A DNA stretch of 64,000 bases from Bacteroidaceae bacterium. GTDB lineage: Bacteria; Bacteroidota; Bacteroidia; Bacteroidales; Bacteroidaceae. Both the position numbers and the translations under genes were made by a program. The notes under the pieces were generated by a model. That model saw nothing but the letters and a program-made list of their open reading frames with translations. It was not told the origin of the DNA and made no database searches. The DNA lies in NCBI GenBank assembly GCA_900770705.1, contig CAAGLF010000027.1, positions 6,784 to 70,783 of the forward strand. Reading direction: 5' to 3'. This document shows positions 7,843 to 61,167 of this stretch, one piece after another; the stretch's first letter is position 1; every line of letters begins with the position of its first letter.

Positions 7843-7920
7843 CAAAGGCGGAAAATCGAATTATCTCCGAGGAAATTCAAATTTTCTCGGAGATAATTTT
7901 TTCTGTCTCCGCACTTCTCC
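7843..7920. repeat. 21-bp-periodic array, copy 1 (gltD/TolC intergenic)
   Basis: Units at 7843 CAAAGGCGGAAAATCGAATTA, 7864 TCTCCGAGGAAATTCAAATTT, 7885 TCTCGGAGATAATTTTTTCTG, 7906 TCTCCGCACTTCTCC; perfect 13-bp IR 7859-7871/7886-7898. Confidence 0.8.
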
Positions 7921-8091
7921 GCGCTGCCGCGCCGTTCTTGCGTCCGGGCAGCGCGGGGAAGGCTCCGATGAGGCGGAAATGCGTAGGTCCCACGCCGGCT
8001 GTCCGTGCTCCCTGCGTCCCTATCCGCGGAAACATTGTCCCACTTTTTGGTTTTTAACGGGAATTATGGCACACTCCCCGCGAAAACTATG

Positions 8092-8099
8092 TAATTTTG
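8092..8099 (+). promoter_or_regulatory. -7 promoter element for TolC/HlyD/permease operon
   Basis: TAATTTTG matches TAnnTTTG. Confidence 0.6.
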
Positions 8100-8185
8100 C
8101 GACCTGCACGCCCCGAATCCGCATAGTTCGCAGAAGCAGGAGAGTAGGAGGGGAGACGGGAAACGTGTGTAAAAAAAGAGATGGT

Positions 8186-9661
8186 ATGAAACGAATACTT
8201 TTTCCGACAATACTGTTGCTGTTCGGCCTGATACAGAGCAGCCGGGCGCAGACAGTGCTTACGCTCGACAGCGTAAAGCGGCTGGCCCTCAGCGAAAGTA
8301 AAACGCTCGCCACCGCACGGCTTTCTATCGACAAGGCCGACAATGTACACCGCGCTGCCCGCACGCAATACCTGCCCAAAATTTCTGTCGTGGGCGGATA
8401 TATGCACACGGGCGACGAGCTCCACCTGCTCTCGTCGGCACAGCGCAATTCCCTTTCCGGGATGGGCACCACCTTCAGCCAGCAGATAGCCGGCGAACTG
8501 CAGCAGGCCGCTGGCGAAATCCTGACCCGCTATCCCGACCTGGCCCCCCTCCTTCAGCAGGCGCAGGACAAGCTGCCCGCGCTGGCGGCAGGAATGAATG
8601 CTGTGGGCAAAGACATTTCCGACGCTTTCCGCACAGATACGCGCAACCTCACCGCCGCGGCCATCATTCTGGCCCAGCCGCTCTATATGGGAGGAAAAAT
8701 CAGAGCCTACGACCGCCTGACCGAACACTCGCGCCGTCTGGCTGCCGAGCAGCTCCGCGAGGCGGAACACAATGTGCTGCTCGAGGCCGAACAGGCGTAT
8801 TGGCAGGTCGTATCACTGGCAGCCAAGAAGCGCCTGGCGCAGAGCTACAGGGAAGTGCTGGCGGAACTCTATGACGACGTGCAGAAGATGGTGGAACAGG
8901 GACTGGCCACGCGTGCGAATGCCTTGAGCGTAAGCGTCAAACTGGGCGAGGCCGAAATGACGCTCACCAAGGTCGATGACGGGCTCACCCTGTCCCGAAT
9001 GCTGCTCTGCCGACTATGCGGATTTCCGCTCGACACAGACTTGCGGCCGGCCGAGGAAGCCAGTGGAGACATCACCACGGAAGGCGAAAGACCCGTGCCC
9101 GACATCGCCGCTGCCCTGACACGCCGTCCGGAACTGCAGCAGCTCGAAGCAGTCGAGGCCATCTGTCGCGACAAAGTGCGCATAGAGCGCTCCGCCCTGC
9201 TGCCCCAGCTGTCGCTGACGGGCGGATACCTGGTGTCAAATCCCAATGTCCTGAACGGATTTCAGAAGAACTTCCGCGGAACATGGTCAGTAGGCCTCGT
9301 CCTGCAATTGCCCGTGTGGCACTGGGGCGAAACGCGCTACAAGGTGCGCGCCGCCGAGGCCGAAGCCCGCATGACGGGGCTCCGTCGGCTCGACGCGCAG
9401 GAGAAGGTGGAACTGCAGCTACGCCAGGAGACCCTGCGCCTGAAGGAAGCCGACCGGAAACTGGCCTTGAGCCGCGACAATCTCGCCGAAGCCGACGAGA
9501 ATTTGCGCGTAGCCCGCATCGGATTCCGCGAGGGAGTCATCTCAACGTCCGATGTGCTGGCTGCCACCGCCTCCTGGCTCCGGGCGCATTCCGATCTGAC
9601 CGACGCGCAGATCGATGTGCGGCTCTCGCAAGCCACCCTGCGCAAGGCAATGGGACTATAG
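8186..9661 (+). CDS. TolC-family outer membrane efflux protein
   Basis: Signal peptide MKRILFPTILLLFG...RAQ, helical OEP pattern (QPLYMGGK, AYWQV, RPEL); start moved to ATG 8186. Confidence 0.9.
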   Translation: MKRILFPTILLLFGLIQSSRAQTVLTLDSVKRLALSESKTLATARLSIDKADNVHRAARTQYLPKISVVGGYMHTGDELHLLSSAQRNSLSGMGTTFSQQIAGELQQAAGEILTRYPDLAPLLQQAQDKLPALAAGMNAVGKDISDAFRTDTRNLTAAAIILAQPLYMGGKIRAYDRLTEHSRRLAAEQLREAEHNVLLEAEQAYWQVVSLAAKKRLAQSYREVLAELYDDVQKMVEQGLATRANALSVSVKLGEAEMTLTKVDDGLTLSRMLLCRLCGFPLDTDLRPAEEASGDITTEGERPVPDIAAALTRRPELQQLEAVEAICRDKVRIERSALLPQLSLTGGYLVSNPNVLNGFQKNFRGTWSVGLVLQLPVWHWGETRYKVRAAEAEARMTGLRRLDAQEKVELQLRQETLRLKEADRKLALSRDNLAEADENLRVARIGFREGVISTSDVLAATASWLRAHSDLTDAQIDVRLSQATLRKAMGL

Positions 9662-9713
9662 CCCCGGCTTTGGCGTCAGAAACAGAAGTAAGAAACTATA
9701 ATTGCAGAGAGAT

Positions 9714-10703
9714 ATGAACAGACTCGAACGCCCCAATCTCTTGCCGGGGCTACTGATTGTTTTAGGAGTGATATCGCTTTTCGCCATAGGCGGATGGTAC
9801 GCCTGGCAGCCGCAGGAGGACCTTCTGCAGGGCCAGGCCGAAGTGGCGGAGTACCGCGTGTCGGGCAAAGTGCCGGGCAGAGTGCTGAAAATCTACGTCG
9901 AAGAAGGGCAGACCGTGCATGCCGGCGATACACTGGCCGTGCTCGAGGCCCCCGATGTACAGGCCAAGTTGCAGCAGGCCGAGGCCGCTGAGCAGATGGC
10001 CGCTGCCGGCAGCCGCAAGGCCGAGGCCGGAGCACGCAGGGAGCAGATAGCCGCCGCTTACGAGATGTGGCAGAAAGCCAAGGCCGGCGCCGAGATTTCC
10101 GAGAAGTCATATAAGCGCGTGAAGAACCTTTTCGAGGAAGGCGTGGTCACCGCCCAGAAGCTTGATGAGGCCCTGGCGCAGCGCGATGCCGCCCTCGCTA
10201 CCGAGCGGGCCGCCCGGGCACAGTATGAGCAGGCCGAAAACGGCGCCCGTCAGGAAGACAGGGACGCCGCCCGGGCCGGCGTGGCTCGCGCCAGGGGAGC
10301 CGTGGCCGAGGTAGACAGCTATATGAAGGAGACAGTGCTCGTCGCGCCGGAAGATGGCGAAGTGACGGATATCTATCCCGAACCCGGAGAGCTGGTCGGC
10401 ACCGGTGCGCCCATTATGAGCGTCGGCAAGATGCAGCAGCTCTGGATAAGTTTCAACGTGCGCGAAGACAAGCTCTCCCGGCTGCCTATGAATGCCACGG
10501 TGGAGGTCAGTGTGCCGGCTCTCGGCGGCCGTCGCGTGAAGTGTCGGGTCTACTCCGTGAAAGATCGCGGCGCCTATGCCGCCTGGAAGGCCACGAAGAG
10601 TACGGGCCAGTACGATATGAAGACCTTCGAGGTGAAGGTCCGCCCCCTGCAGCCCGTTGAGGGCCTGCGGCCGGGTATGAGCGTCTTGTCGGTAAGCAAA
10701 TAA
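9714..10703 (+). CDS. HlyD-family membrane fusion protein
   Basis: N-terminal TM, VSGKVPGRV..EEGQTV..GD biotinyl-like half, coiled coil, APEDGEV, GLRPGMS. Confidence 0.92.
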   Translation: MNRLERPNLLPGLLIVLGVISLFAIGGWYAWQPQEDLLQGQAEVAEYRVSGKVPGRVLKIYVEEGQTVHAGDTLAVLEAPDVQAKLQQAEAAEQMAAAGSRKAEAGARREQIAAAYEMWQKAKAGAEISEKSYKRVKNLFEEGVVTAQKLDEALAQRDAALATERAARAQYEQAENGARQEDRDAARAGVARARGAVAEVDSYMKETVLVAPEDGEVTDIYPEPGELVGTGAPIMSVGKMQQLWISFNVREDKLSRLPMNATVEVSVPALGGRRVKCRVYSVKDRGAYAAWKATKSTGQYDMKTFEVKVRPLQPVEGLRPGMSVLSVSK

Positions 10704-10752
10704 AGGAATTGCAGTGGCCCCGCTGTGGCTGCTGCCGGTCAAGATACAGGCA

Positions 10753-11895
10753 ATGATCAAGGAGAAATGGAAAAATAGCTTGCGGAGTCCGCTCTTTTGG
10801 TTCGCGACAGTGGTGGCGCCCCTGGCTTGCTGTCTGTTTTTCACCTCGTTGATGAAGAGTGGACTGCCGGCCGAAATGCCTATCGGTCTTGTCGACGAAG
10901 ACGCCACGGCTACCTCGCGCGAGATTGGCCGCAATCTCGACGCCTTTCAGCACGTCCGCCTGGCCGGCCGCTACGCCACCGTGGCGGAAGCCCGCAAGGC
11001 GATGCAGCAGGGCGACATCTATGGTTTCTATCTCATTCCCCGGCAGACCGCCCGTCGGGCACAGCGCGGCGAAGTGCCCACCGTGTCTTTCTACACCAGC
11101 TATTCCTATCTCGTGGCAGGCTCGCTGATCTACAAAGATATGCGCACGATGGCCGAACTGTCGTCCGGAGCCGCCGCGCGCAGCGTGCTGTATGCCCGCG
11201 GAGCCACCGAACGGCAGGCTATGGCCTATCTGCAACCGATTGTCATCGATGTAAATCCCATTGGCAACCCATGGCTGAATTATAGTGTCTACCTGTCGAA
11301 TACGCTGGTGCCGGGCGTGCTCTGTCTCTTCGTTCTGCTGCTGACGGGCTACACCCTCGGTGCCGACTTCAAGGCGGGAAGGGCGCGTACAGCCCTCGAA
11401 AGGTGTGGCGGCAGCGTGTTCCGCCTGCTTTTCGCGCAGCTGCTTCCGCAGACGGTGGCTTTTCTGCTGACCGGCGGTCTGATAGTGCTTATTCTCTACG
11501 GCGTACTGCGCTATCCCTGCTTCTGTGGCATTCCGACGATGCTGCTTGTCGTTTCGCTCTTGGTACTGGCGGCGCAGGGCTTGGGCATAGCCATCTTTTC
11601 CCTGCTTCCCACGCAGCGTATGGCGATGAGCGGCGGTGCGCTGTTGGGCGTTGTGTCGTTCAGTATATGCGGAATGTCTTTCCCCGTGATGGCTATGCAC
11701 CCCGCCTTGCAGGGACTCGCGCTGCTTTCGCCCCTGCGCCATTACTTTCTGCTGTATGTCAACTGCGCTCTCGATGGTTACTCCCTGCTGAATGCCTGGC
11801 CCTACGTCGTGGCACTGCTGCTGATGGCGCTGTTGCCGCTGCCGGTGGCCCCGCTGCTGAGGAAGGCATTCCTGCGCTATGGCTACGAACCCTGA
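10753..11895 (+). CDS. ABC-2 type transporter permease (YbhS/YhhJ-like)
   Basis: TM + periplasmic PIGLVDED domain, NPWLNYSVYL, multiple TMs, FSICGMSFP. Confidence 0.88.
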   Translation: MIKEKWKNSLRSPLFWFATVVAPLACCLFFTSLMKSGLPAEMPIGLVDEDATATSREIGRNLDAFQHVRLAGRYATVAEARKAMQQGDIYGFYLIPRQTARRAQRGEVPTVSFYTSYSYLVAGSLIYKDMRTMAELSSGAAARSVLYARGATERQAMAYLQPIVIDVNPIGNPWLNYSVYLSNTLVPGVLCLFVLLLTGYTLGADFKAGRARTALERCGGSVFRLLFAQLLPQTVAFLLTGGLIVLILYGVLRYPCFCGIPTMLLVVSLLVLAAQGLGIAIFSLLPTQRMAMSGGALLGVVSFSICGMSFPVMAMHPALQGLALLSPLRHYFLLYVNCALDGYSLLNAWPYVVALLLMALLPLPVAPLLRKAFLRYGYEP

Positions 11896-11910
11896 ACAAC
11901 GCTCCGAAAA

Positions 11911-13128
11911 ATGCTTTCAGTCACTCCTTATATATATAATACCGCAGAATGGTTCCGCACGGCCGCCCGCGAGATGTGGCGGGCGCTGCGGGAGGCCTTG
12001 ACGGACCAGGGACAGCTGATGTTCCTCGTGATCGTGCCGCTTTTCTACCCCCTGCTTTACAGTTTTATCTACACTGGCGAGGTAGTCCGCGAGGTTCCCG
12101 TTGCCGTTGTCGACCAAAGCCATACGGCCGCCTCGCGGGAATTCCTCCGCCGCCTCGACGCCACGGCCGACGTGGAGATAGTAGCCCGTGTGGCCGACCT
12201 GGCGGAGGCCAAGTCGCTGGTACGCAGCCGCGATGCCTACGGAGTGGTCGTTGTGCCCGAAGCCTTTGCCTCTGATATAGCCCGTGGGGAGCAGACCCAC
12301 GTCGAGGCTTACGTTGATATGAGCGGAATGCTCTACTACAAGGCCATCCTCGCCTCCTGCACCAACGTGTCGCTCACGATGAACGCCGAAATCAAGGTGG
12401 CACGTGCCGGAGGAATGACGCGCCGGCAGGAAGAGGTGACGGTGCAGCCCATTGCTTACGAGGAAGTATCGCTCTTCAATCCGCAGGGCGGCTTTGCCTC
12501 TTTCCTCATACCTGCCGTGCTGATACTCGTGTTGCAGCAGACCCTGCTTCTGGGCATTACGATGGGGCTGGGCACGCGGCGTGACCGCCTTCCGGCCGGC
12601 CGCGTCAGCCTGTCAGCCCCCTCCGTCGTCTTTACTGCGGCCCGCCTTGTCGGCAGGGCTTCCGCCTATTTCCTGCTGTACCTCCCGGTCTCGGTGTATG
12701 TGCTGGGCGTAGTACCGAAGTGGTTCTCCCTGCCCCAGATCGGCGGGGGGGGGGACATTGCGGCCCTGACAGTACCGCTGCTGCTGGCCACGATCTTCCT
12801 CGCCTTCACCCTCGGCGTGGCGGTCAGGCAGCGGGAGACGGGCCTCCTGCTGATTGTCTTCACCAGCGTGCCGCTGCTTTTCCTGAGCGGCATATCCTGG
12901 CCGGGCAGTGCCGTTGCCGAAGGCTGGAAAGCCCTGGGCTACCTCTTTCCCTCCACGTTCGGAATCAATGGCTTCGTGCGGGTGAACACGATGGGGGCCA
13001 GCCTCCCCGACGTGTCCCACGAATGCCGTATGCTGTGGCTGCAAACCGCCGTTTACTTCGTTACCGCTCTGGCTGCCACCTATGTAGTCGGTCGAAAAAA
13101 CGCCATTTCCGCCAAAAAAGCCTTGTAG
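11911..13128 (+). CDS. ABC-2 type transporter permease (YbhR-like)
   Basis: VPVAVVDQS, LFNPQGGFASF, FLSGISWP, multiple TMs. Confidence 0.88.
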   Translation: MLSVTPYIYNTAEWFRTAAREMWRALREALTDQGQLMFLVIVPLFYPLLYSFIYTGEVVREVPVAVVDQSHTAASREFLRRLDATADVEIVARVADLAEAKSLVRSRDAYGVVVVPEAFASDIARGEQTHVEAYVDMSGMLYYKAILASCTNVSLTMNAEIKVARAGGMTRRQEEVTVQPIAYEEVSLFNPQGGFASFLIPAVLILVLQQTLLLGITMGLGTRRDRLPAGRVSLSAPSVVFTAARLVGRASAYFLLYLPVSVYVLGVVPKWFSLPQIGGGGDIAALTVPLLLATIFLAFTLGVAVRQRETGLLLIVFTSVPLLFLSGISWPGSAVAEGWKALGYLFPSTFGINGFVRVNTMGASLPDVSHECRMLWLQTAVYFVTALAATYVVGRKNAISAKKAL

Positions 13129-13154
13129 AATTGCAGTAGTTCAAAAATAATCCG

Positions 13155-13162
13155 TATTTTTG
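13155..13162 (+). promoter_or_regulatory. -7 promoter element for frr
   Basis: TATTTTTG matches TAnnTTTG. Confidence 0.65.
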
Positions 13163-13179
13163 TTTCGCAAAAAAACAAT

Positions 13180-13290
13180 GACATCGGAGTTCCCGAAAAG
13201 TTCTGCGGAGATAGTTTTCCGTACAGCGGCGAAAGTTTTTCGTAGCTCGGAGCTAATTTTTTTTTCAGGCCTTGAAGTTGCGCCGATGTC
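13180..13290. repeat. 21-bp-periodic array, copy 2 (putative frr 5' leader)
   Basis: Units at 13182 CATCGGAGTTCCCGAAAAGTT, 13203 CTGCGGAGATAGTTTTCCGTA, 13224 CAGCGGCGAAAGTTTTTCGTA, 13245 GCTCGGAGCTAATTTTTTTTT, 13266 CAGGCCTTGAAGTTG; bounded by 8-bp IR GACATCGG/CCGATGTC. Confidence 0.8.
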
Positions 13291-13321
13291 TGGTACTAAT
13301 TTCTAATACCCCGAACGTAAA

Positions 13322-13882
13322 ATGTTAGACGTCAAACAAACGCTTGCCGACTGCGAAGAAAGAATGGAGATGAGTGTGCTCCACTTGGAAGAAACGCTCT
13401 CGCACATCCGCGCAGGAAAGGCCAACGCCCACATCCTCGACGAAGTAAGGGTGAATAGTTACGGCTCGATGGTGCCTATCAACAACGTGGCGGCCATCAC
13501 CACCCCCGATCCCCGCACGATAGCCATCAAGCCTTGGGACAAGTCGATGTTCCGCCCCATCGAGAAGGCCATTATCGACTCCAATGTAGGCATTATGCCT
13601 GAAAACAACGGCGAAGTCATCCGCCTGGGCATTCCCCCGCTTACCGAAGAGCGTCGGCGCGACCTCACCAAGCAGTGCAGCCGCGAGGCCGAGGAAAGTA
13701 AGGTGGCCATCCGGGCCGCCCGCCGCGACGGAATCGAAAAGCTGAAGAAGTCTGTCAAGGACGGAGTGCCCGAAGACGTGGAAAAGGACGCCGAAGCCGA
13801 CCTGCAGAAGATTCACGACCGTATGGTCAAGAAAATCGAGGACCTGCTGGCAGCCAAGAGCAAGGAGATAATGACGGTATAG
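13322..13882 (+). CDS. frr: Ribosome recycling factor
   Basis: IRAGKA, IKPWDKS, IPPLTEERR, KEIMTV. Confidence 0.98.
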   Translation: MLDVKQTLADCEERMEMSVLHLEETLSHIRAGKANAHILDEVRVNSYGSMVPINNVAAITTPDPRTIAIKPWDKSMFRPIEKAIIDSNVGIMPENNGEVIRLGIPPLTEERRRDLTKQCSREAEESKVAIRAARRDGIEKLKKSVKDGVPEDVEKDAEADLQKIHDRMVKKIEDLLAAKSKEIMTV

Positions 13883-13974
13883 CCGTCGGAAGAACCGGCA
13901 GTTTGGGAGTTCGGAGCGAATGGCGGGCTTTCCCGCCGCCGTCCGGACTCCCAAAGTCGCTTTTCTCCCGTTGT

Positions 13975-14910
13975 ATGCAAGGAATAGTAGTCAGAAATAC
14001 CGGTAGCTGGTACATCGTGCAGACCACCGACGGACGCAGGATAGAATGCAAGGTCAAGGGCAACTTTCGCCTCCGTGGCATTCGCTCCACCAACCCCGTC
14101 GCCGTGGGCGACTGCGTCACCGTGCGCCAGGAAGCCGGCGCTGCGGCAGCCTTCATCACCGAAATTGCCGAGCGCCGCAACTATATCGTGCGCAAAGCCT
14201 CCAACTTGTCGAAGCAGAGCCACATCCTGGCGGCGAACATCGACCTTACCGTCCTTCTGGTCACTACAAAGCGTCCCGAAACCACCACTACATTCATCGA
14301 CCGCTTCCTGGCAAGCGCCGAAGCGTACCGCGTGCCGGCCGTGGTGGCCTTCAACAAAATAGACGAGCTGCAGAACGACGAAAAGGAGAGGCTGCGCTAC
14401 CTGCAGACAGTTTACGAAGCGGCCCGCTATCCCTGCCACTTCATCTCGGCCCTCTCCGGCGAAGGCGTACCGGCCCTGCTGGAGGAAATGCAGGGCAAGA
14501 CCACCCTGCTGGCCGGGCACTCCGGAGTGGGTAAGTCCACACTCCTCAACCGCCTCGTGCCCGAAGCCCACGCCAAGACGGCCGAAATCTCCACAGCCCA
14601 CCAGTCCGGAATGCACACCACCACGTTCAGCGAACTCTTCGCCCTGCCCGGCGGCGGAGGCGTCATAGATATTCCCGGCATCAAGGGCTTCGGCACCTTT
14701 GATATGGAGCAAGAGGAGATTTCCCACTACTTCCGCGACATCTTCGCCCTCTCCGGAGACTGCAGGTTCCACAACTGTACCCACACCCACGAGCCCGGGT
14801 GCGCCGTGCTCGACGCTTTGGAGAACCATCGCCTCGCGCCGACGCGCTATGCCTCGTACCTCTCTATGCTGGACGACGAGAACGACGGCAAGTACCGCGC
14901 GGCATTTTAG
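13975..14910 (+). CDS. rsgA: Ribosome small subunit-dependent GTPase A
   Basis: AVGD, ANID, NKID, GHSGVGKST, GMHTTT, DIPG, CRFHNCTHTHEPGC. Confidence 0.97.
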   Translation: MQGIVVRNTGSWYIVQTTDGRRIECKVKGNFRLRGIRSTNPVAVGDCVTVRQEAGAAAAFITEIAERRNYIVRKASNLSKQSHILAANIDLTVLLVTTKRPETTTTFIDRFLASAEAYRVPAVVAFNKIDELQNDEKERLRYLQTVYEAARYPCHFISALSGEGVPALLEEMQGKTTLLAGHSGVGKSTLLNRLVPEAHAKTAEISTAHQSGMHTTTFSELFALPGGGGVIDIPGIKGFGTFDMEQEEISHYFRDIFALSGDCRFHNCTHTHEPGCAVLDALENHRLAPTRYASYLSMLDDENDGKYRAAF

Positions 14911-14988
14911 CCGCAGACGCCCATACGTCCGCCTCGCGGAGCGTCTTCCATCCCTGATTCCTCACCGAAACGAACGTTATCCCACCTT

Positions 14989-15465
14989 ATGTCAACTTCC
15001 CTACTCATTATTCTGCTCGCAGCCCTGTCGCTGCTGCTCTTTGCCGTCGAGGCGCTGCTGGTGCCCGGCTTCGGACTGCCCGGCATCGCGGCTGCAGCTT
15101 GTGCCATCGCGGCCGACGTGCTGGTCTATACGGAGTATGGCACGTTGCCCGCCCTGCTGCTTTTTCTGGCGGCCACGGCAGTCGTGCTGTTCTTCCTCTG
15201 GTGGTTCTCCCGCTCCAAGGCACTGCACGCCATGTCCCTGCAAGCCTCCATCGACAGCACGAACGCCACTTCCGCCCAGCTTTCCGTGCGTCCGGGCGAC
15301 CGCGGCGTAGCTACCACCCGCCTGGCACTCATCGGCAATGCCGCGATTGAAGGCAAGAGCGTGGAGGTAAAGTCCACCGGCGCCTTCGTCGATCCCGGCA
15401 CGCCCGTGATAGTGGTGTCGGTCAGCGAGGCGCAGATACTTGTCGAGCCGGAGCACAGGGCCTGA
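14989..15465 (+). CDS. NfeD-like membrane protein (C-terminal OB fold)
   Basis: Hydrophobic N-terminus with EALLVPGFG, then GDRGVATTRLALIG...EVKS..FVDPGT. Confidence 0.8.
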   Translation: MSTSLLIILLAALSLLLFAVEALLVPGFGLPGIAAAACAIAADVLVYTEYGTLPALLLFLAATAVVLFFLWWFSRSKALHAMSLQASIDSTNATSAQLSVRPGDRGVATTRLALIGNAAIEGKSVEVKSTGAFVDPGTPVIVVSVSEAQILVEPEHRA

Positions 15466-15505
15466 GGCATCCTCGCCGCCGCTGCCCCGCACTCCGCCTT
15501 GCGTA

Positions 15506-15589
15506 CAAAGGAGGTAGTTGAAACTATCGCGGCGAAAGTTCGTTTTTCTGCGGCGGAAGTTTTTTCTTTCGGCCCGGTTCTTCGGCGTA
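15506..15589. repeat. 21-bp-periodic array, copy 3
   Basis: Units at 15506 CAAAGGAGGTAGTTGAAACTA, 15527 TCGCGGCGAAAGTTCGTTTTT, 15548 CTGCGGCGGAAGTTTTTTCTT, 15569 TCGGCCCGGTTCTTC. Confidence 0.8.
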
Positions 15590-15700
15590 GCTCGCAGCCG
15601 CAGTGTCCTCTGCGTGGGCGGAACGTCCGCTTTTCTGGCATATTCCGCGTTCGGAGCCGGGTTTACGCCCTTCGATGACCGTCGGTTTGCATATAATTGT

Positions 15701-15708: not shown

Positions 15709-15716
15709 CACCCCGT

Positions 15717-17913: not shown

Positions 17914-17935
17914 CGCGCGCCCACTTGCTTCATAC

Positions 17936-52716: not shown

Positions 52717-53715
52717 TTACTGTCCGTCGTATCCCCATTTCATATAGGCGGCGCCCCACGTGAATCCGGCTCCGAAGGCGGTGAGTATCAGGTTGTCGCC
52801 TTTCTTGAGTTGCTTTTCGTAATCCCAGAGTGCCAGTGGAAGCGTTCCGGCCGAGGTGTTGCCGTAGCGTTGGATATTGAGCATTACCTTCTCCATAGGC
52901 AGGGAGAGGCGATGGGCTACTGCCTCGATGATGCGTACATTGGCCTGATGGGGGATCACCCACGCTATGTTTTCGTGCGACAGGCCATTGCGTTCGGCGA
53001 TGAGTGCGCTGGCGTCGCTCATGTTGGTTACGGCAAACTTGAATACGGTGCGTCCCTCTTGGTGCAGATAGTGCATGCGGTGGTCGATGGTGAAGTGGCT
53101 CGGGGAGCAGACGGAGCCGCCGGCCTTCATACAGAGGAAAGGCAGGCCCAAACCGTCGGTTCTGAGATAAGAGTCCTTCCATCCGAGATCTTCTGTCGTG
53201 GGTTCCACGAGTACGGCTGCCGCGCCGTCGCCGAAGATGGGACACGTGGCGCGGTCGGTGTAGTCGACCATAGAGGACATTTTGTCGGCGCCGCAAACGA
53301 TAATCTTTTTGTAGCGTCCGCTTTGCACCATACCTGCAGCTGCGTCCATTGCGAAGAGGAAACCACAGCAGGCTGCCTGCATATCGATTGCAAAGGCGTT
53401 TTTCATGCCTAAGCGGCCGATAACGATGCTGGACGTGGAGGGAAAGTGGAAGTCTGGTGTGGTAGTTGCCACTATCAGGCAGTCTATTTCCTGCGGATCG
53501 GTATTGGTCTTTTCGAGGAGTTGCTTGACGGCTTTTCTGGCGAGGTAGCTGGTTCCGAGTCCTTCTTCGTTGAGAATGCGGCGTTCCTTGATACCGATTC
53601 GTGTCATTATCCACTCGTCGTTGGTGTCCACCATTTTGGAGAGCTCGTCGTTGCTCAAGACGTACTCAGGCACGTATCCGCCTACGCCTGTGATGACGGC
53701 ATTTATATTGTTCAT
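52717..53715 (-). CDS. fabH: 3-oxoacyl-ACP synthase III
   Basis: AACCGF, FGDGAAA, PHQAN.RI, YGNTS, GAGFTWG. Confidence 0.96.
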
Positions 53716-53878
53716 TACGGTAGGTCTGATTTAGTTGTCAATACTACAAAGTCCGACCTTCTCAAGCGGGCTCAATCGGGTCGTGCAATGTTTCTCACAA
53801 AGAAAGTGAGAGTTGAAAGCGGAAAGTTGTCTTTTCTCTCCGCCCTCAACTCTCTTGTGCTTCATTCGTAGTGTGGCA

Positions 53879-54067
53879 TTACTCGGCCGTTTCTTCCTTT
53901 ACGACAGCGAGTTTTCCGCGATAGTAGCCGCAGGTGGGGCATACGGTGTGATAAATGTGCCATCCTCCGCAGTTGGGGCAGATTGCCATAGTGGGCATAG
54001 TTGCCTTGTCGTGGGTTCTACGTTTGAGTGTACGGGTTTTGGATTGTCTTCTTTTAGGATGTGCCAT
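53879..54067 (-). CDS. rpmF: 50S ribosomal protein L32
   Basis: MAHPKRRQSK, CPNC...CPTCGYYRG. Confidence 0.97.
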   Translation of the reverse strand: MAHPKRRQSKTRTLKRRTHDKATMPTMAICPNCGGWHIYHTVCPTCGYYRGKLAVVKEETAE

Positions 54068-54122
54068 GGTTCTTTGGTCTATTTGATTGTTTCTGATTTG
54101 TCGGATGGTGTATGGCGCGGGT

Positions 54123-54578
54123 TCATTCGTCCGGGCCGGCTATGTATTTTGCCACGTCTTCGTTGCATTCTCCGTGGCGGTGTTTCCGCTGGAGGGGCAG
54201 CGCGAGCAGGATGGTTTCGTAGATGTCCCACGACAGGTCGTAGGCCACTTGTGAGGCCGGTATGGCTGTCACCTCGTCGGTCGGCTCCGGGAGTTCGTCT
54301 TCGTAGGCCACCTGAAGGGTGTCTTCGGCTTCCACCGGGATTTCCAGGTCGTCAAGGCAGCAGTCGCAGGGTACGATGACGCTGCCTTCGGCCTTGATGT
54401 GTATCCGAAACAGGCTTCCGGCGCTTTCTCTGACGCTGATGCTGGCAGTCACGTGTCCGTCGGTGATTTCCTGCTGGTCGAGATGGCGGAAAAAGCTGCC
54501 GTTGAGCGTGGTCTCCACGTTCAGTCCCTCCCGGGGGAGGCTGCGTAAGTTTATGTTCAGCGGCTCGTTGCTCGACAT
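54123..54578 (-). CDS. YceD/DUF177 family protein
   Basis: VPCD.CLD, YE.ILLALP...H..GEC; upstream of rpmF; TAACTTTG -7 box at 54587-54594 (minus). Confidence 0.88.
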   Translation of the reverse strand: MSSNEPLNINLRSLPREGLNVETTLNGSFFRHLDQQEITDGHVTASISVRESAGSLFRIHIKAEGSVIVPCDCCLDDLEIPVEAEDTLQVAYEDELPEPTDEVTAIPASQVAYDLSWDIYETILLALPLQRKHRHGECNEDVAKYIAGPDE

Positions 54579-54747
54579 AGCGGCTGCAAAGTTAGCAATT
54601 TTTTTTTGGATAGGAAGCATATTTGCCGCTATTTTTTATCCGCAGCCGCCGTTTGTCTGGCCAGCCTGGCCGGTTGGGGGGCGGGTAGGGCGGCGGGTGG
54701 CCTTGGGATGGCTATATAAATAATGTACGCGCGCGCGATGTCTGGCG

Positions 54748-55917
54748 TCAGAAGCGGGCGGTGATTTGCGCGTCCCACGTGTTGTAATAGCGGTCGCCCT
54801 TGGTGGCGCGGTCGTCGGTGAAGGTGTAGTTCAGCTGGAAGAGCAGGTTTTTCCCGAGCCAGTAGTTGGCGGCGAGTCCCCAGTTGGTTTTCAGCGTGTT
54901 CCAGTGTGCGTTGTCGCGATAGCAGTCCCAGCGTCCGTAGAGCTTGAAGTTTTTGAATGCGGGCCATCCCACGGTGGCGTACCAGGCGTCGGAGTGGCGT
55001 GCTGAGGCGGCGTTGGTGACGATGGCGCCGTGCGACCACATATACTCGCCGCGCACGGTCCATTTGCTTTCGTACTTCACGCCGGCTCCCCAGCGCTGGC
55101 GCTGCGCGGAGCGGAGGTCGGTGCCGTCGCCCTTGTAGCTCTCGTTGGTATATTTGCCGTTCCAGCCGAAGCCGCCGATTTCGAGGTCCTTCATGGGGCG
55201 GAACCAGAGTCCGCCTATGAGGTCTTTGTGGTGGTCTTTGTCAGCGTGGTTGATTCCTTGTCCGTTGAAGAAGCCCACCTGGTAGTGCAGCCACTTGTGT
55301 CCGTCGCCGGCGCTGGGGAAGAGGTCGCCCTGCAGCTGTATGCCGACGTCGCGTCCCGAGCTTTTGTGCTCGCCGATACGGTCGTTGATGGAGGCGAGTT
55401 TCAGGGTGGCCTGCGAGTAGCTGCCGAGGCCCACGTTGAGCGGGCTGTAGGGGTTTTCGAAACCGAAGGAGCGCTTGAACTGTCCCAGCTTCACCCTGAG
55501 GAAGTCGAAGTGCTGCCATTCTATGAAGGCGTCCACGATGCGCGGCCCTTTGTCGTTGCCGGGTGCGCCGTTCACCTCCATCTGCAGGCGGTAGTAGAAG
55601 TCCTTGAAGCAGTAGCCGTTCATATAGAGGCGTACGAAGCGCAGATCGAAGCCGCCGTTGGTGGCAGTGCCGCTCTGGTCGGAAATGGAGTACTTTCCGA
55701 TGATGTATCCGCCGAATTTCAGCTTCATATCGATTTTTTCGGCCATCTTCCGGATGGTCTGCAGGCTGCTTCCCTCTGCGCGGAGTGTGCTGTCGGCCTG
55801 TGTGGCGGCAGCGGCCGCGAAGGGCTGCGGCGTTCCCGCTTCTTCCTTCTCCCCGGCTTGCAGAACATTCACGCTAGCAATGGTCAATATCGCGGGGAAA
55901 ATCAACTTTTTCATCAT
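54748..55917 (-). CDS. Outer-membrane porin (OprO/OprP-like)
   Basis: Signal peptide, DAFIEW, GQFKRSF..E, GRDVG.QL.G, C-terminal Phe; start could be 55941. Confidence 0.8.
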   Translation of the reverse strand: MMKKLIFPAILTIASVNVLQAGEKEEAGTPQPFAAAAATQADSTLRAEGSSLQTIRKMAEKIDMKLKFGGYIIGKYSISDQSGTATNGGFDLRFVRLYMNGYCFKDFYYRLQMEVNGAPGNDKGPRIVDAFIEWQHFDFLRVKLGQFKRSFGFENPYSPLNVGLGSYSQATLKLASINDRIGEHKSSGRDVGIQLQGDLFPSAGDGHKWLHYQVGFFNGQGINHADKDHHKDLIGGLWFRPMKDLEIGGFGWNGKYTNESYKGDGTDLRSAQRQRWGAGVKYESKWTVRGEYMWSHGAIVTNAASARHSDAWYATVGWPAFKNFKLYGRWDCYRDNAHWNTLKTNWGLAANYWLGKNLLFQLNYTFTDDRATKGDRYYNTWDAQITARF

Positions 55918-55948
55918 TGTTTCTGAATTTTTATTATACAAATTGGTG

Positions 55949-55976
55949 CAAAGATACGGCTTTTGAGGTAACTTTG
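55949..55976. promoter_or_regulatory. Back-to-back divergent -7 promoter elements
   Basis: CAAAGATA (TATCTTTG on minus) at 55949-55956 and TAACTTTG at 55969-55976. Confidence 0.65.
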
Positions 55977-55984
55977 CAGCCGTT

Positions 55985-57334
55985 ATGCAGAAAAAAATCG
56001 CAAACAGGCCTTATTCTACCGGCTCCGGAGTCGTTCGTTTCACGGCGAAAATTTTTCTTTTCGCCGCGATAATTCTGCTTTCGGAGCTTCTCGTTTCTCC
56101 CTCCTTCGCAAGAGCTGGCGCGCTGTGTGGCGCGGGCGGTCCTGCCGCTGCGGGCGACACGCTTTCCCGCCTGAACGTTCTTCCATCGGCGACTGCAGGG
56201 GCCGATACGGCCGTAGCGGCCCTCTCTGCGCCGGCCCTGGCCTATCTGGCGGAGCAGAAGCGCGCGGACAGCGCCGGCTTCTTTCGCCGTGTAGTCAACT
56301 ATTTCCGCAATGCCAACAAGCCCGACACCACCAGGAACTTCCATTTCGCCTTTCTCCCCGGCCCCCACTATTCTTCGACCACGGGTTTCGGTATCGGGAT
56401 GGCTGCCACGGGCACTTACTTGATGGACTTTCAGGACAAGTCGCTGCCCAAGTCGAATGTGGCCATCTACGGCGACGTCACGTCCAAGAAATTCTTCATG
56501 GTCGGCGTCAAGGGCACCAATATCTTCCCACAGGAGCGCTACAGGCTGGACTACCGCCTCTATGCCTACACGTTTACCACGCATTACTGGGGCATAGGCT
56601 ACGATGAGGGCCGTGTGGACAGTCTGGAGACCGACTACCGCCGCATTCGCTACGACGCCCAGGCCTCCTTCCTCTTCCGCGTGGCGCCCAAGATGTACAT
56701 AGGACCCAGCGCCGCCTTCCATTACATCCGGGCCACGGACATCGAGCAGCATCCCCCGTACGTGTTCGCAGGACTGCCCCTGTCTGTGCGCAGTGCCTCG
56801 CTCGGCATCAGTTTTGTCTACGACACCCGCGATTTTATCCTGAACGCAGCGCGCGGTTGGTTCGTGCAGTTCGACCAGAACTTCACACCCCGCTTCCTCG
56901 GCAACGGCGACCACTGTTACTCCACGTCCGAGCTCACCGTTTCGACCTATCGCCGCGTGTGGCAGGGAGCCATCCTGGCCGGCGAGCTTCACGGCAAGTT
57001 CAACTACGACGGCACGCCGGCGTGGTGTCTGCTCGCCGACGCGGGTTCCCAGGGCAGAATGCGCGGCTACTACGAAGGCCGCTACCGCGACCGCAGCATC
57101 ATCGAGGCGCAAGTGGAGCTCCGCCAGTACATCAGCGGTCGCTCGGGCGCCGTGGTGTGGCTGGGAGCTGCCGAAGTCTTCCCCAAGTTCTCCGCGCTGC
57201 GCTTCCGCAAGATATTGCCCAACGCCGGTGTGGGCTACCGCTGGGAGTTTATGCCCAGGGTCAACGTCCGTCTCGATTTAGGCTTCACGCGCGACGGCGC
57301 CGGCTTTATGTTCAATCTCAACGAAGCCTTCTGA
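55985..57334 (+). CDS. Omp85 (BamA/TamA-like) beta-barrel protein without obvious POTRA domains
   Basis: LPGPHYS, YDTRD, MRGYYEGRYRD, G.GYRW, NVRLD.G, C-terminal NEAF. Confidence 0.82.
   Translation: MQKKIANRPYSTGSGVVRFTAKIFLFAAIILLSELLVSPSFARAGALCGAGGPAAAGDTLSRLNVLPSATAGADTAVAALSAPALAYLAEQKRADSAGFFRRVVNYFRNANKPDTTRNFHFAFLPGPHYSSTTGFGIGMAATGTYLMDFQDKSLPKSNVAIYGDVTSKKFFMVGVKGTNIFPQERYRLDYRLYAYTFTTHYWGIGYDEGRVDSLETDYRRIRYDAQASFLFRVAPKMYIGPSAAFHYIRATDIEQHPPYVFAGLPLSVRSASLGISFVYDTRDFILNAARGWFVQFDQNFTPRFLGNGDHCYSTSELTVSTYRRVWQGAILAGELHGKFNYDGTPAWCLLADAGSQGRMRGYYEGRYRDRSIIEAQVELRQYISGRSGAVVWLGAAEVFPKFSALRFRKILPNAGVGYRWEFMPRVNVRLDLGFTRDGAGFMFNLNEAF
56040..56090. repeat. 21-bp-periodic array, copy 13 (in-frame in N-terminal hydrophobic region)
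   Basis: 56040 TCACGGCGAAAATTTTTCTTT, 56061 TCGCCGCGATAATTCTGCTTT, then CGGAGCTTC (3 nt out of phase). Confidence 0.6.
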
Positions 57335-57376
57335 CGGCACTCCCCCGTGCCCGAACGAAAATCTACCACGACAGTT

Positions 57377-58375
57377 ATGAAAAAAACAGCACTGATTTCG
57401 CTTCTTTTCCTGGCCATCGGCCGCCCGATGACGGCGCTGCCCTATGCGCCGGAGTACCTCCAGGAGACAGCCGCCGGCAAGGAAGAACTGATAGCCTTCG
57501 GCGATTTCAACAAGTGGCTGGTGCGCAACATCAAGGAGAGCGCCATCCTCGGAGGCAATACGAAAACGCTCTGCACCCCCGCACCCGCCCAGACTTGGAA
57601 CGACGACCGCCCCTACAACGGCCTTGGAGGCTCGCCCTGGGCCACGTCGAACGTGCTGGCCAAGGTGTCCGGCATTACCAAGACCAACGTCTCCGTCTAC
57701 CGCGAAGCCCGGCCCGGCCACGGCTACTGCGCCAAGCTCTACACCCACACCGAAGAGTGCAAGGTGCTCGGCATCGTGAACATCAAGGTGCTCGCCGCCG
57801 GCTCCATCTACCTCGGAAAGACGCAGGAACCCATCACCGGCACGAAGAACCCGATGGCCAAGCTCGACGCCGGCATACGTTTTACGAAGCGTCCCAAGGC
57901 TATCCGCTTCGACTACAAGGTGAAGCTCTCCGGCAAGCCCTCCCGTATACGCCAGACCGGCTTCAGCAAGGTAGAGACCGTACATGGCATCGACATGCCC
58001 GACTGTATCCTCTACTTGCAGAAACGCTGGGAAGACGCCAAGGGCAACATCCACGCCAAGCGCGTAGGCACGATGGTCAAGCGCTTCGTCAAGAATACCG
58101 ACGGCTGGGTGAACAACGCCACCTTCCCCATCCACTACGGCAACATCGTGGGCAAGGACTGCTACGCAGGCTATATGGCCCTCACCAAGGGCGACCAGAC
58201 GAAATATGCCCGCAACAGCAAGGGCAAGATGGTCCCCGTGATCGAGGAAGGCTGGGCTGCGGAGGACGAAGTACCCACCCATCTCGTCCTGCAGTTCGAC
58301 TCGAGCCACGGCGGCGCCTATGTGGGCTCCGTGGGCAACACCCTGTGGGTCGACAACGTACGCCTCGTCTACTGA
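57377..58375 (+). CDS. PCMD (putative carbohydrate metabolism domain)-type exported protein
   Basis: Signal peptide; SPWATSN, LAAGSIYLG, F..RP.A..FDYK, PTHLVLQF.SS.GGAY.G..G.TLWVDN. Confidence 0.75.
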   Translation: MKKTALISLLFLAIGRPMTALPYAPEYLQETAAGKEELIAFGDFNKWLVRNIKESAILGGNTKTLCTPAPAQTWNDDRPYNGLGGSPWATSNVLAKVSGITKTNVSVYREARPGHGYCAKLYTHTEECKVLGIVNIKVLAAGSIYLGKTQEPITGTKNPMAKLDAGIRFTKRPKAIRFDYKVKLSGKPSRIRQTGFSKVETVHGIDMPDCILYLQKRWEDAKGNIHAKRVGTMVKRFVKNTDGWVNNATFPIHYGNIVGKDCYAGYMALTKGDQTKYARNSKGKMVPVIEEGWAAEDEVPTHLVLQFDSSHGGAYVGSVGNTLWVDNVRLVY

Positions 58376-58427
58376 GGCGCAGACGTGCGGCCCCCTAACG
58401 CATTACAACCCAAACAATCCAACCGAT

Positions 58428-59276
58428 ATGCTTACTCCTGAAGAACTCAACGAAAAGTTGATCGACCTGGCCTTTGCCGAAGACATCGGCGACGGCGACC
58501 ATACCACCCTCTGCTGCATTCCCCGCGAGGCGATGGGCAAGTCTAAGCTCCTGATCAAGGAAGAGGGAATACTGGCCGGTATACGCGTGGCCAAGGAAGT
58601 GTTCCGTCGTTTCGACCCCGACATGCAAGTCGAGGTGCTCATCGAAGACGGCGCCCACGTACGCCCCGGCGACGTGGCGATGGTCGTCAGCGGCCGCGTG
58701 CAAAGCCTGCTCCAGACCGAGCGCCTGATGCTCAACATCGCGCAGCGTATGAGCGGCATTGCCACAATGACGCATACCTACGTGGAACGCCTGGCCGGTA
58801 CCAAGACCCGCGTGCTCGACACGCGGAAAACCACGCCTGGAATGCGCATTCTCGAGAAGGAAGCCGTGAAAATCGGCGGTGGCTGCAACCACCGCATAGG
58901 CCTCTTCGACATGATTCTGCTCAAGGACAACCATGTGGACTTCTGCGGCGGCATCAGCAATGCCCTGACGCGTTGCCAGGAGTACCAGAAGGCCCGGGGG
59001 CTGAACCTGAAGGTCGAGATAGAATGCCGTAGCTTCGAGGAAATCCGACAGGTGATGGAGCACGGCGGCGCCGACCGCATTATGCTCGACAACTTCTCCG
59101 TGGAAGACACGCGCAAGGCTGTGGAAATGATAGGCGGACGCTTCGAGACGGAGTCGAGCGGCGGCATTACGCTCGACACGCTCCGCGACTATGCGCTCTG
59201 CGGCGTAGACTACATCTCCGTAGGGGCCCTGACGCACTCCGTCAAAGGGCTGGACATGTCCTTCAAAGCCTGCTGA
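58428..59276 (+). CDS. nadC: Nicotinate-nucleotide diphosphorylase (carboxylating)
   Basis: EDIGDGDHT, ER..LN, LDTRKTTPG, HR.GLFD..LLKDNH, MLDN, ISVGALTHS. Confidence 0.97.
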   Translation: MLTPEELNEKLIDLAFAEDIGDGDHTTLCCIPREAMGKSKLLIKEEGILAGIRVAKEVFRRFDPDMQVEVLIEDGAHVRPGDVAMVVSGRVQSLLQTERLMLNIAQRMSGIATMTHTYVERLAGTKTRVLDTRKTTPGMRILEKEAVKIGGGCNHRIGLFDMILLKDNHVDFCGGISNALTRCQEYQKARGLNLKVEIECRSFEEIRQVMEHGGADRIMLDNFSVEDTRKAVEMIGGRFETESSGGITLDTLRDYALCGVDYISVGALTHSVKGLDMSFKAC

Positions 59277-59322
59277 CGGTGGCCTCCTGCTGAACTTCTC
59301 ACCCCTAAATACCCCGACTCCC

Positions 59323-60978
59323 ATGCATTTCTCCAAAAAGGGGCTGCTCACGGCCGCCGCACTGCTGCTGACAGCCCCGTTGATAGCCTGTACCAATTTC
59401 CTCGTCGGCAAGAAAGCCTCGGCCGACGGAGCTTGCTACATCTCCTATAGCGCCGACTCCTACGGCATGTTCGGTTCCCTCGAATATCTGCCTGCCGCCC
59501 GGCACGCGCCGGGCTCCCTGAGGCGCATTGTAGACCGCGACACCCACCATTTTCAGGGCTACATCGCCGAAGCGGCCGAGACGTACGCCGTGATGGGACA
59601 CATCAACGAACACCAGGTGGCCGTGATGGAAACTACTTTCGGCGGACGCGAAGAACTGGTGGACCCCCACGGCATCATTGATTATCCCAGCCTGATGACG
59701 CTCGCCCTGCAGCGTGCCCGCACGGCGCGCGAAGCCATCGGCGTGATGACCAGCCTCGTGCAGGAATACGGATACGCCAGCGAGGGCGAGAGCTTCAGTG
59801 TGGCGGACCCCAACGAGGCCTGGATACTCGAGATGATCGGCAAGGGGCCCGACGAGAAGGGCGCCGTGTGGGTGGCCGTACGCATCCCCGACGACTGCAT
59901 AGCCGCCCATGCCAACCATAGCCGCATCCACCGCTTCAACCTCAAGGACAGGCAGAACGTGCTCTACGCCAAGGACGTCATCAGCTTCGCCCGGAAAAAG
60001 GGATACTTCTCCGGGAAGGACGAGGACTTCTCCTTTTCCGCCGCCTATGCCCCCGAGGACTTCTCCGCCCTGCGTTTCTGCGAGGCCCGCGTCTGGAGTT
60101 TCTACAACCGCTTCTGCAGCGGGATGGACAAGTACCTGGCGTATGCCCGTGGCCTTGAGCCGGGCCGCCACGAGCCCCTGCCGCTCTACCTGAAGCCCGA
60201 CCGCAGGCTCTCGCTCCGCGATGTGCGCGAGGCTATGCGCGACCACTACGAAGGCACGCCCTTCGACGTGACGCGCGACGCCGGTGCCGGCGTCTGGACG
60301 GCTCCCTACCGCCCCACGCCGCTGATGTGGGAACACGAGGGACGCAAGTATTTCAACGAGCGGCCCATCTCCACGCAGCAGTCGGCCTACTGCGTCATCG
60401 CACAACTGCGATCCCAGCTGCCCGACGCCGTGGGAGGCGTGCTCTGGTTTGCCAACGACGACGCACACACCACGCCATTCTCGCCTGTCTACTGCTGCGC
60501 CACCACCGTGCCCGAACCTTTCAGCGAGGACGTGGCCGACGACCACACCTTTTCCGACCGTTCGGCTTTCTGGGTGTGCAACTGGGTGGCCAATATGACC
60601 TATCCGCGCTACTCCCAGCTCTTCCCGAGCCTCAAGGAGGCCCGCGACGAAGTGGACAGCCTCTTCGCCACGCGCCAGCCCGTCGTGGAGCAGGAGGCCG
60701 AAGCCCTCATACGCGGCGGACACGCCACGGAGGCGCGCCGCCTGCTTGATACCTACACCACACGCTGCGCGCGTGAAATGCTCGAACGCTGGAAGCAGCT
60801 GGCCTACTACCTCATCGTGAAGTACAACGACCAGGCCGTGAAGGTGGAAGAGGACGGACGCTACAAGCTGACGCCCGACAGCCTCATCGTGGCCCCCCAG
60901 CGCCCCGGCTTCGACCCTGCGTTCCGCTCTGTCATCGTGCGTGAAACAGGCGACAGGTTCCTGGTGCCGGCCCAGTAG
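59323..60978 (+). CDS. C69-family dipeptidase
   Basis: Signal peptide then N-terminal nucleophile CTNFLVGK.AS.DG, NEHQV...ETTFGG, ERPIS. Confidence 0.9.
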   Translation: MHFSKKGLLTAAALLLTAPLIACTNFLVGKKASADGACYISYSADSYGMFGSLEYLPAARHAPGSLRRIVDRDTHHFQGYIAEAAETYAVMGHINEHQVAVMETTFGGREELVDPHGIIDYPSLMTLALQRARTAREAIGVMTSLVQEYGYASEGESFSVADPNEAWILEMIGKGPDEKGAVWVAVRIPDDCIAAHANHSRIHRFNLKDRQNVLYAKDVISFARKKGYFSGKDEDFSFSAAYAPEDFSALRFCEARVWSFYNRFCSGMDKYLAYARGLEPGRHEPLPLYLKPDRRLSLRDVREAMRDHYEGTPFDVTRDAGAGVWTAPYRPTPLMWEHEGRKYFNERPISTQQSAYCVIAQLRSQLPDAVGGVLWFANDDAHTTPFSPVYCCATTVPEPFSEDVADDHTFSDRSAFWVCNWVANMTYPRYSQLFPSLKEARDEVDSLFATRQPVVEQEAEALIRGGHATEARRLLDTYTTRCAREMLERWKQLAYYLIVKYNDQAVKVEEDGRYKLTPDSLIVAPQRPGFDPAFRSVIVRETGDRFLVPAQ

Positions 60979-61001
60979 GCCCCTCCCTTCCCCTCGTCTG
61001 C

Positions 61002-61065
61002 CACGTAGGACGGACTCTCCGCCAAGGCCGCACCAGCGGTTGTGACGGGAAGTCCGTCCTACGTG
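61002..61065. terminator. Hairpin after C69 peptidase gene
   Basis: Perfect 15-bp IR CACGTAGGACGGACT/AGTCCGTCCTACGTG; no U-tract. Confidence 0.45.
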
Positions 61066-61083
61066 CGTACAACGGAGCTACTT

Positions 61084-61167
61084 CCGCCGTTGTCGGAAAA
61101 AATAGCGGCGCGGAAATCCGGATTTCCAGGGCGGAAGAAAAAAGTGACGCCCCGCCTCTTCCGCGGC
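61084..61167. repeat. 21-bp-periodic array, copy 14
   Basis: 61084 CCGCCGTTGTCGGAAAAAATA, 61105 GCGGCGCGGAAATCCGGATTT, 61126 CCAGGGCGGAAGAAAAAAGTG, 61147 ACGCCCCGCCTCTTCC. Confidence 0.7.

Follow-up and report, generated by a model that had tools for sequence, protein, structure and literature searches.

The main finding of this study is that the coding DNA of a Bacteroidaceae chromosome carries a GC/AT lattice with a step of about 21 bp, anchored on short arrays of 21-bp units that are dispersed between and within its genes. We describe it from a stretch of 64,000 nucleotides (G000:C27:6784-70783, the whole of which we call the window), in which 14 arrays occur, and from the rest of the assembly, which comprises 111 contigs and 1.99 Mb at 57% GC and is 81% complete and 0.17% contaminated. 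By themselves the arrays would amount to a new family of dispersed repeats; the lattice, which is anchored, extends over kilobases and is replicated, fits no family that we tested, and the finding is real. No description of the arrays or of a 21-bp lattice was found in the literature searched, outside which subscription journals largely lie. The explanation that we favour, and consider probable from the pattern itself, is that the arrays are nucleation sites for a protein filament that reads DNA shape, with one dimer per two DNA turns, in the manner of p6 from phage phi29. The host is probably an Alloprevotella-like member of the Bacteroidaceae because the matches of its ribosome recycling factor are named "Bacteroidaceae bacterium" (up to 88%) and "Alloprevotella sp." (85%). 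Its nearest RsgA among the genomes compared, which include no close relative, is 73-75% identical. The window holds ordinary housekeeping, transport and surface genes, and 1451 genes were called in the whole assembly with our own dicodon finder, their starts being approximate.

The preliminary description listed 14 arrays in 21-bp phase, and all were confirmed at their coordinates: a matrix seeded on them and an 84-bp profile trained genome-wide each return exactly these 14 in the window (Table 1). Their contexts (tandem, divergent and convergent gaps and, for two of them, the inside of coding sequences) are as originally claimed, and so is their spacing of ~2-6 kb plus a gap of ~10 kb, the measured gaps being 1.9-6.1 kb and one of 10.4 kb. 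When the seeded matrix was run over the 110 other contigs, which were not used for seeding, 307 arrays scored at least 30 at period 21, against 0, 3, 12, 0 and 0 at periods 19, 20, 22, 23 and 24, and none in each of three local shuffles or in order-5 Markov sequence, which bears out the 21-bp periodicity over its controls. A refined model counts 343 arrays in this genome, and the 84-bp profile gives 323 matches of at least 20. Since 238 of the 343 have exactly four units (84 bp), the two to five units first reported are better described as typically four. Each unit is a pseudo-palindrome centred on C/G: its middle is rich in GC and its arms in A/T, and position -6 holds T and position +6 holds A (0.90 in each case). 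The element is polarised, with a central G in unit 1 (188/238 copies), a central C in unit 4 (199/238), an A-tract at the first junction and a T-tract at the last, and its dyad symmetry is a property of the 84-bp consensus, not of single copies. The idea that these A-tracts are phased to bend DNA did not hold up in a simple AA/TT vector sum, which at 10.5 bp is 3.4 in the arrays and 3.4 in shuffles; at 21 bp it is 13.8.

The arrays are placed evenly at short range and unevenly at long range. By context, 188 lie in tandem gaps, 73 in divergent and 39 in convergent ones, 21 inside coding sequences and 22 at contig edges. The 266 inter-array gaps, of median length 3.1 kb, are evener than random intergenic placement would make them (coefficient of variation 0.73 vs 0.89), only 6% being under 1.5 kb vs 18% for random placement. 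On a larger scale the arrays cluster, 42 of 147 10-kb bins being empty vs 16% expected. Although 63% of the assembly lies within 4 kb of an array, free stretches of at least 10 kb make up 35% of it, and many transitions between dense and free DNA lie inside single contigs. The free zones hold dnaA, the ribosomal-protein operon, atp, nqr, lysS, his and ilv (138 of 186 listed open reading frames (ORFs) were scanned). They are not contaminating contigs, given the low contamination, the transitions within contigs and these core genes, nor are they short of intergenic room (2.7 vs 3.1 gaps of at least 150 bp per 10 kb). Within the window, the array-free interval 45675-56012 spans a conserved housekeeping run (rsmE, queE, a PTPS-family gene, der, era, fabH and yceD). 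Elsewhere in the assembly, an array-free, AT-rich region at about 18-30 kb of G000:C82 has many small ORFs with foreign codon usage and is probably acquired DNA.

The period of the arrays continues into the genes around them. In genes near arrays (n = 797), the autocorrelation of A/T-tracts is 1.23, 1.23, 1.28, 1.20 and 1.17 at lags of 21, 42, 63, 84 and 105 bp, whereas genes in array-free zones (n = 351) show the ordinary ~11-bp signal instead. When coding DNA is aligned on the arrays, the period-21 amplitude falls from 0.60 at 100-200 bp to 0.15 at 2-3 kb, exceeds all 200 random-phase nulls in 10 of 10 distance bins and has a best period of 21.06, its phase drifting smoothly from +2 to +7.7 bp with distance. 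The window alone gives a projection of 0.407 (null standard deviation 0.088) that exceeds all 2000 random-phase trials; this test covered 150-1500 bp out on each side of an array, and the claim leaves aside the middle of the 45.7-56.0 kb gap. Measured without regard to phase, the amplitude is 5.7-8.0 up to 4 kb from arrays, 2.7 at 4-8 kb and nil past 8 kb, where a 10.9-bp signal appears. The lattice sits mostly at synonymous sites, first and second codon positions shifting less: the A/T fraction of two-fold sites rises from 0.227 at lattice centres to ~0.345 in the arms (p ~1e-165), and that of four-fold sites from 0.178 to ~0.25. Isolated good units in coding sequences are also some three to four times commoner in phase (59 vs about 16). 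Lattice strength in the flanks rises with array strength (0.33, 0.37, 0.48) and is equal in genes read away from the array (0.357) and towards it (0.361). Heptad repeats in proteins, which could give a 21-bp period, are ruled out as its source by the signal at synonymous sites and its locking to intergenic anchors.

Neighbouring arrays keep register with each other. Gaps under 3 kb (n = 112) cluster near whole multiples of 21.08-21.10 bp (R = 0.34, phase near 0), gaps of 3-6 kb do so weakly (R = 0.17, p about 0.05), and a free scan of periods 15-30 on the gap lengths peaks at 21.11. Among 202 neighbouring pairs, 84 are in register and 47 out of it, vs about 67 each expected (p = 0.002). Pairs in register have a lattice projection that is continuous across the gap (0.39-0.57), while in pairs out of register the projection on the lattice of one array runs 0.55, 0.28, 0.17, 0.13, -0.10, -0.14, -0.24, -0.43 across the gap, so that the phase tracks the nearer array and reverses past the midpoint, forming a seam. 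Promoters are also set in relation to the arrays. With the consensus of the -7 box of sigma-ABfr as excerpted from PMC7366714, 209 boxes near arrays point outward vs 37 that face them, and the 209 are helically phased at 10.5 bp (R = 0.45, p ~1e-18), i.e., lie on one helix face; seven control motifs (n = 9-52) show no phasing at 10.5 bp, some being weakly phased at 21.

The pattern is replicated in a second species, the complete genome G025 (completeness 99%), in which 800 kb of 2.67 Mb hold 101 arrays, 48 of them four-unit, with none at four control periods. Its arrays have a different core from those of the host, yet the lattice is phase-locked in 4 of 5 bins with a period of 21.14, and gaps are in register (R = 0.43, n = 50, the period chosen among three). 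The masked amplitude is at least 5 in 13 of 40 windows of this genome, and mapping against ori and ter finds arrays and lattice in patches along either replichore and close to both skew switches, neither confined to nor barred from one domain. The lattice also appears in the single samples of 5 of 20 genomes (G155, G079, G102, G076 and G033). More widely, a pattern of the host type matches 7 of 36 genomes of the genus and none of 24 from other families. A looser pattern, which misses some real arrays (G025, G033, G088), matches 51 of 148 genus genomes, 26 with at least three matches, and these share a 13+8 architecture with species-specific cores. The scan of other Bacteroidales that the preliminary description had proposed thus places arrays in the genus and, by eye, in nine further genomes (G344, G219, G239, G361, G298, G365, G544, G241 and G188), where genuine 21-bp arrays are mostly longer; across the order the looser pattern matches 78 of 401 genomes, but controls are often as high, and short loci from eight of the nine show no clear lattice. 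The complete genome G013 has no arrays and no detectable lattice in the 200 kb sampled.

Other relatives display variations on the same theme. In the clade of G076, G094, G095 and G072 (87-98% DNA identity), arrays lie at orthologous sites, none of which was seen empty, and differ by 21 or 42 bp. Their element is a composite of ~250 bp (L199:10190-10442 in G095; orthologous arrays L185-L204) that runs from T-tract units through a middle block, built of a second palindromic 21-bp unit, to A-tract units. G062 (L098, L155-L158) has 21-bp arrays of opposite polarity, with the A-tract before the core and the T-tract after it; the signal at 10.5-10.7 bp is unusually strong there, without a 21-bp lattice. 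The reversed control pattern also scored in G070, G085, G146 and G215. At L099:8638 (G168), a 21-bp array of other sequence lies upstream of frr, like the window array at 13197. Most of 29 other rsgA loci have no array, and near rsgA other genus members carry a separate class of intergenic tandem repeats with best periods of 16-19 bp (Table 1).

Table 1. Arrays and lattice in the window (window positions), and short-period repeats at loci of other genus members
Feature	Position	Strand	Score or basis
Four-unit 84-bp element, tandem gap gltD / TolC-family gene	7837..7920	.	66
Element upstream of frr	13197..13280	.	51
Element, tandem gap NfeD-like / LysE-family genes	15500..15583	.	68
Element, divergent gap PadR-family gene / heavy-metal P-type ATPase	19075..19158	.	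64
Element, convergent gap P-type ATPase / acyltransferase, overlapping last codons of acyltransferase ORF	21252..21335	.	71
In-frame element within ORF 26107-29178	27347..27430	.	65
Weak element before subtilase-like gene	31277..31360	.	21
Element, tandem gap before FucP-like permease	33599..33682	.	54
Element, divergent gap Fur-like / OmpA-family genes	35754..35837	.	50
Element, divergent gap DUF4348 / pheS	40045..40128	.	48
In-frame element within MFS transporter 41318-42679	41953..42036	.	45
Weak element, tandem gap after GNAT gene	45591..45674	.	23
Element, divergent gap porin / Omp85-family genes	56013..56096	.	32
Element, tandem gap C69 dipeptidase / SusC-like gene	61078..61161	.	32
~21.07-bp GC/AT lattice in coding DNA around the 14 elements, phase-locked	6300..62700	.	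window-only projection
Short-period tandem repeats near rsgA	L033:1326, L027:1387, L050:2449, L048:851		

We propose that an abundant DNA-binding protein would polymerise along the duplex from high-affinity sites in the arrays, one dyad-symmetric unit, probably a dimer, occupying every two helical turns (~21.1 bp). It would read the shape given by a GC-rich centre between A/T-rich arms, with T at -6 and A at +6, more than any exact word, and the filament would spread about 4 kb both ways from each array, neighbouring filaments merging across gaps that hold an integral number of steps and meeting at a seam in all others. Long occupancy would imprint the pattern on synonymous and some amino-acid positions, presumably by selection rather than mutation bias; promoters would be set on one face of the filament; and new arrays would arise by insertion or copying of units, followed by divergence. 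The dyad unit, the fixed two-turn step, the spread in both directions, the merging and seams, and the rotationally set promoters would together be the trace of a coat of polymerised dimers. Relaxed B-DNA has about 10.5 bp per turn, and a step of 2 x 10.53-10.57 bp is near to this, which points to DNA that is coated straight or bridged, not tightly wrapped. The preliminary description had proposed dyad sites for a cooperatively binding, nucleoid-organising protein; the lattice in flanking genes supports and extends this proposal, in which the protein itself is still something that we infer.

The closest precedent is p6 of phage phi29, which according to excerpts of PMC10899789 and of a review (PMC11894785) binds as dimers every 24 bp, is nucleated at bendable rather than sequence-defined sites, spreads as a multimer and affects promoters. 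The likeness would lie in a regular repeat that arises from shape-defined sites, with which the sequence imprint agrees. Differences are clear: the available account of p6 has 24 bp per dimer and right-handed wrapping on a 19-kb phage genome with nucleation at its ends, whereas here the step is ~21.1 bp, the ~340 sites are internal to a bacterial chromosome, and codon usage bears an imprint; a step of two whole turns would also imply little wrapping, unlike in p6. Among bacterial proteins, BldC reportedly forms cooperative multimers on direct repeats. In filaments of the H-NS type, strong sites seed cooperative spreading, as outlined in part of a review (PMC11894785). The arrays are like both in that strong sites would seed cooperative spread along DNA, and unlike both in having dyad units and in that the zones coated would be GC-rich core genes rather than AT-rich foreign DNA. 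To our knowledge, no fixed phase over kilobases has been described for H-NS-type proteins or BldC.

Several results weigh against a filament. No candidate for its protein emerged when small ORFs were ranked by codon bias, a list that foreign AT-rich DNA swamped, nor did array neighbours or searches for HU-HIG, histone and SMC hinge domains yield one. There is no gene shared by the neighbours of the 24 longest arrays, nor by those of arrays in relatives (55 ORFs). The host encodes two HU/IHF-like and two or three HU-HIG proteins (excerpts of PMC5499826 give background on the latter family), and HU-HIG looked promising as the array protein in five genomes but failed across the 148 of the genus: it is found in 130, arrays occur in 25 of 130 genomes with it vs 1 of 18 without (p = 0.20), and the array-rich G079 (79% complete) has no match. 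Most genus genomes have one to three HU-HIG matches, vs 24 in G168 and 19 in G023. No histone was found in the five genomes searched, and no SMC hinge domain was found in G025, G013, G000, G155 or G033, MukB not having been searched for. The lattice is also less general than the arrays, since 15 of the 20 single samples from array-bearing genomes have a masked amplitude of 3 or less; in G062 it is nominal in one of five bins, a further test in G033 gave no clear lattice, and the matrices of G062 and G033 also scored at control periods. Among indels of the G076 clade, which are not independent, only 3 of 333 are 21, 42 or 84 bp. The strand-asymmetric part of the flank profile is not significantly correlated with the unit matrix (r = 0.23, p = 0.33), and mutation bias may be the cause of the lattice in place of selection. 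Finally, half-sites are discrete words (one, for example, is seen 79 times vs 2 expected, of 1904), which shows copying that binding alone leaves unexplained.

Such copying is what would be expected if the arrays were selfish repeats of the REP or MITE type, spread by some enzyme, with the lattice a neutral by-product of phased repair, mutation or short-patch conversion from the repeat. This we hold to be unlikely, although it has real attractions. Three in-gene copies were aligned to homologues, and while those in UvrA and in a sigma-54 activator fall within variable loops, the third is a clean in-frame insertion of 25-27 residues in the linker of a SpoU-family gene relative to 4 of 4 homologues, and so is one probable insertion. 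The UvrA array (L207, G000:C77) is itself in frame in a loop of variable length. Near-identical dispersed copies occur in G016, G020, G078 and G062, with no lattice in their samples; these samples are small, and they would fit an order in which arrays come first and the imprint accumulates later. Units are more alike within than between copies (0.640 vs 0.601 for the 1-3 pair, likewise 2-4 and 2-3), as would be expected from an origin by internal duplication, and we attribute to this likeness the ~5 kcal/mol by which real copies fold better than unit-recombined ones, a result that runs counter to a simple no-hairpin reading. Copies have thus been inserted and copied, and therefore a dispersal mechanism exists; to that extent the REP/MITE-like element mobilised in trans of the preliminary description survives, but its defining features were not found. 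The predicted target duplications gave no clear excess over permuted pairs in 285 copies (k = 3, 4, 5 and 8, all offset pairs), although old copies could have lost theirs. There are no conserved or IS-like terminal inverted repeats, the 30-bp flanks of 238 copies having at most 0.42 bit per position and continuing the unit pattern. Arm complementarity is as expected (0.517 vs 0.515, 0.544 vs 0.545) with no covariation, so that there is no copy-level stem, and dyad pairing over the whole element equals that of unit-recombined copies (9.21 vs 9.07 pairs). The Y1/RAYT transposase family PF01797 was not found in the array-bearing G000 (81% complete), G025, G078 and G016; it was found only in G013, which lacks arrays in its sample. 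Array spacing is evener than chance and in register, those of the G076 clade persist at orthologous positions, and a phased bias over kilobases needs something bound in phase.

Known repeat families differ accordingly. REP, BIME and REPIN consist of hundreds of intergenic, species-specific, palindrome-based units, in all of which they are like the arrays, but here no copy-level hairpin and no RAYT-type Y1 were found, and the 21-bp phase is strict and accompanied by a flanking lattice. In the order itself, the repeats of Porphyromonas gingivalis described in parts of PMC4596501 and PMC2575886 are BrickBuilt (23-nt repeats, with leader and tail segments) and MITEPgRS, which have IS5-family terminal inverted repeats and about 20 copies. 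Like the arrays, these Bacteroidales elements are dispersed and internally repetitive, and the BrickBuilt unit is also about two helical turns, but our arrays lack those features, a distinction drawn on text descriptions; the repeat consensuses of MITEPgRS may yet bear on how alike the units are.

Another view is that the arrays are architectural sites upstream of promoters (UP-element or IHF-like) for a global regulator, and that chromosome organisation is secondary, which we judge improbable. It draws on the outward -7 box found at 155 of 323 arrays, on the array just upstream of 179 of 500 gene-proximal boxes, on the helical phasing of the boxes, on their greater frequency in gaps with an array (119/157 vs 105/168, p = 0.012) and on the 73 arrays in divergent gaps. 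It does not account for the 39 arrays between convergent genes and the 21 inside coding sequences, nor for a lattice that is independent of the direction of transcription and reaches 2-4 kb, and highly expressed housekeeping operons lie in array-free zones. Very improbable, in our opinion, is a protein-free DNA code, by which the 21-bp pattern places supercoil branches or favours side-by-side pairing of duplexes: in its favour, the period matches relaxed DNA taken two turns at a time (10.53-10.57 bp for each), what species have in common is no more than a coarse GC/AT architecture, and genome-wide A-tract periodicity near 10-11 bp is already known (from portions of PMC3940949 and PMC7537859). 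Against it, AA/TT shows no net phasing over a single turn, a dyad object is required to make the period two turns instead of one, and the fixed four-unit size, the unit polarity and the midway seam are easier with a bound polymer. That prokaryotic periodicity, like nucleosome phasing, is a periodic A/T signal in coding DNA as well (same excerpts), but in our case the period is doubled, its phase is tied to discrete elements and it occurs only within domains; zones free of arrays have the ordinary signal of ~10.9 bp.

The remaining candidates do not fit. A CRISPR array is excluded, as the preliminary description had noted, because units abut directly with no unique spacers and no cas family is present among the window ORFs scanned; a structured RNA family is excluded by the lack of covariation and of any Rfam match at the gathering score. 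Macrodomain sites of the NBS, SBS or matS type either keep to a single ori or ter domain or avoid it, which is at odds with the patchiness in G025 and with the many transitions inside host contigs. Centromeres such as parS or parC, and iterons, are few and adjoin a cognate par or rep gene, unlike 343 loci that share no neighbour gene. Positioning of histone (hyper)nucleosomes is not supported, PF00808 having a match in 0/5 genomes, other histone-fold profiles not having been searched for.

These findings touch two open questions, how a chromosome is organised without an evident condensin or histone, and what purpose periodic signals serve in bacterial coding DNA. The periodic signal described here is anchored, advances by a fixed step over a given range, breaks at seams and stands in a defined relation to promoters, and among the complete genomes of the genus are one that has the lattice (G025) and one in which none is detectable (G013). 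The signal also reveals a positional force on synonymous codon usage, which at two-fold sites comes to about 12 points of A/T and is unmodelled in analyses of codon bias and selection. If the filament that we propose exists, and we consider the chances evenly balanced for the following picture in full, a lineage of Bacteroidales in which searches found neither SMC hinge domains nor histones would package most of its chromosome in a phased, chromatin-like protein filament, whose register would come from insertable 84-bp seeds every ~3 kb and would dictate codon choice, seed spacing and promoter rotation; this would be a bacterial chromatin encoded in the sequence, dividing the chromosome into coated and uncoated domains.

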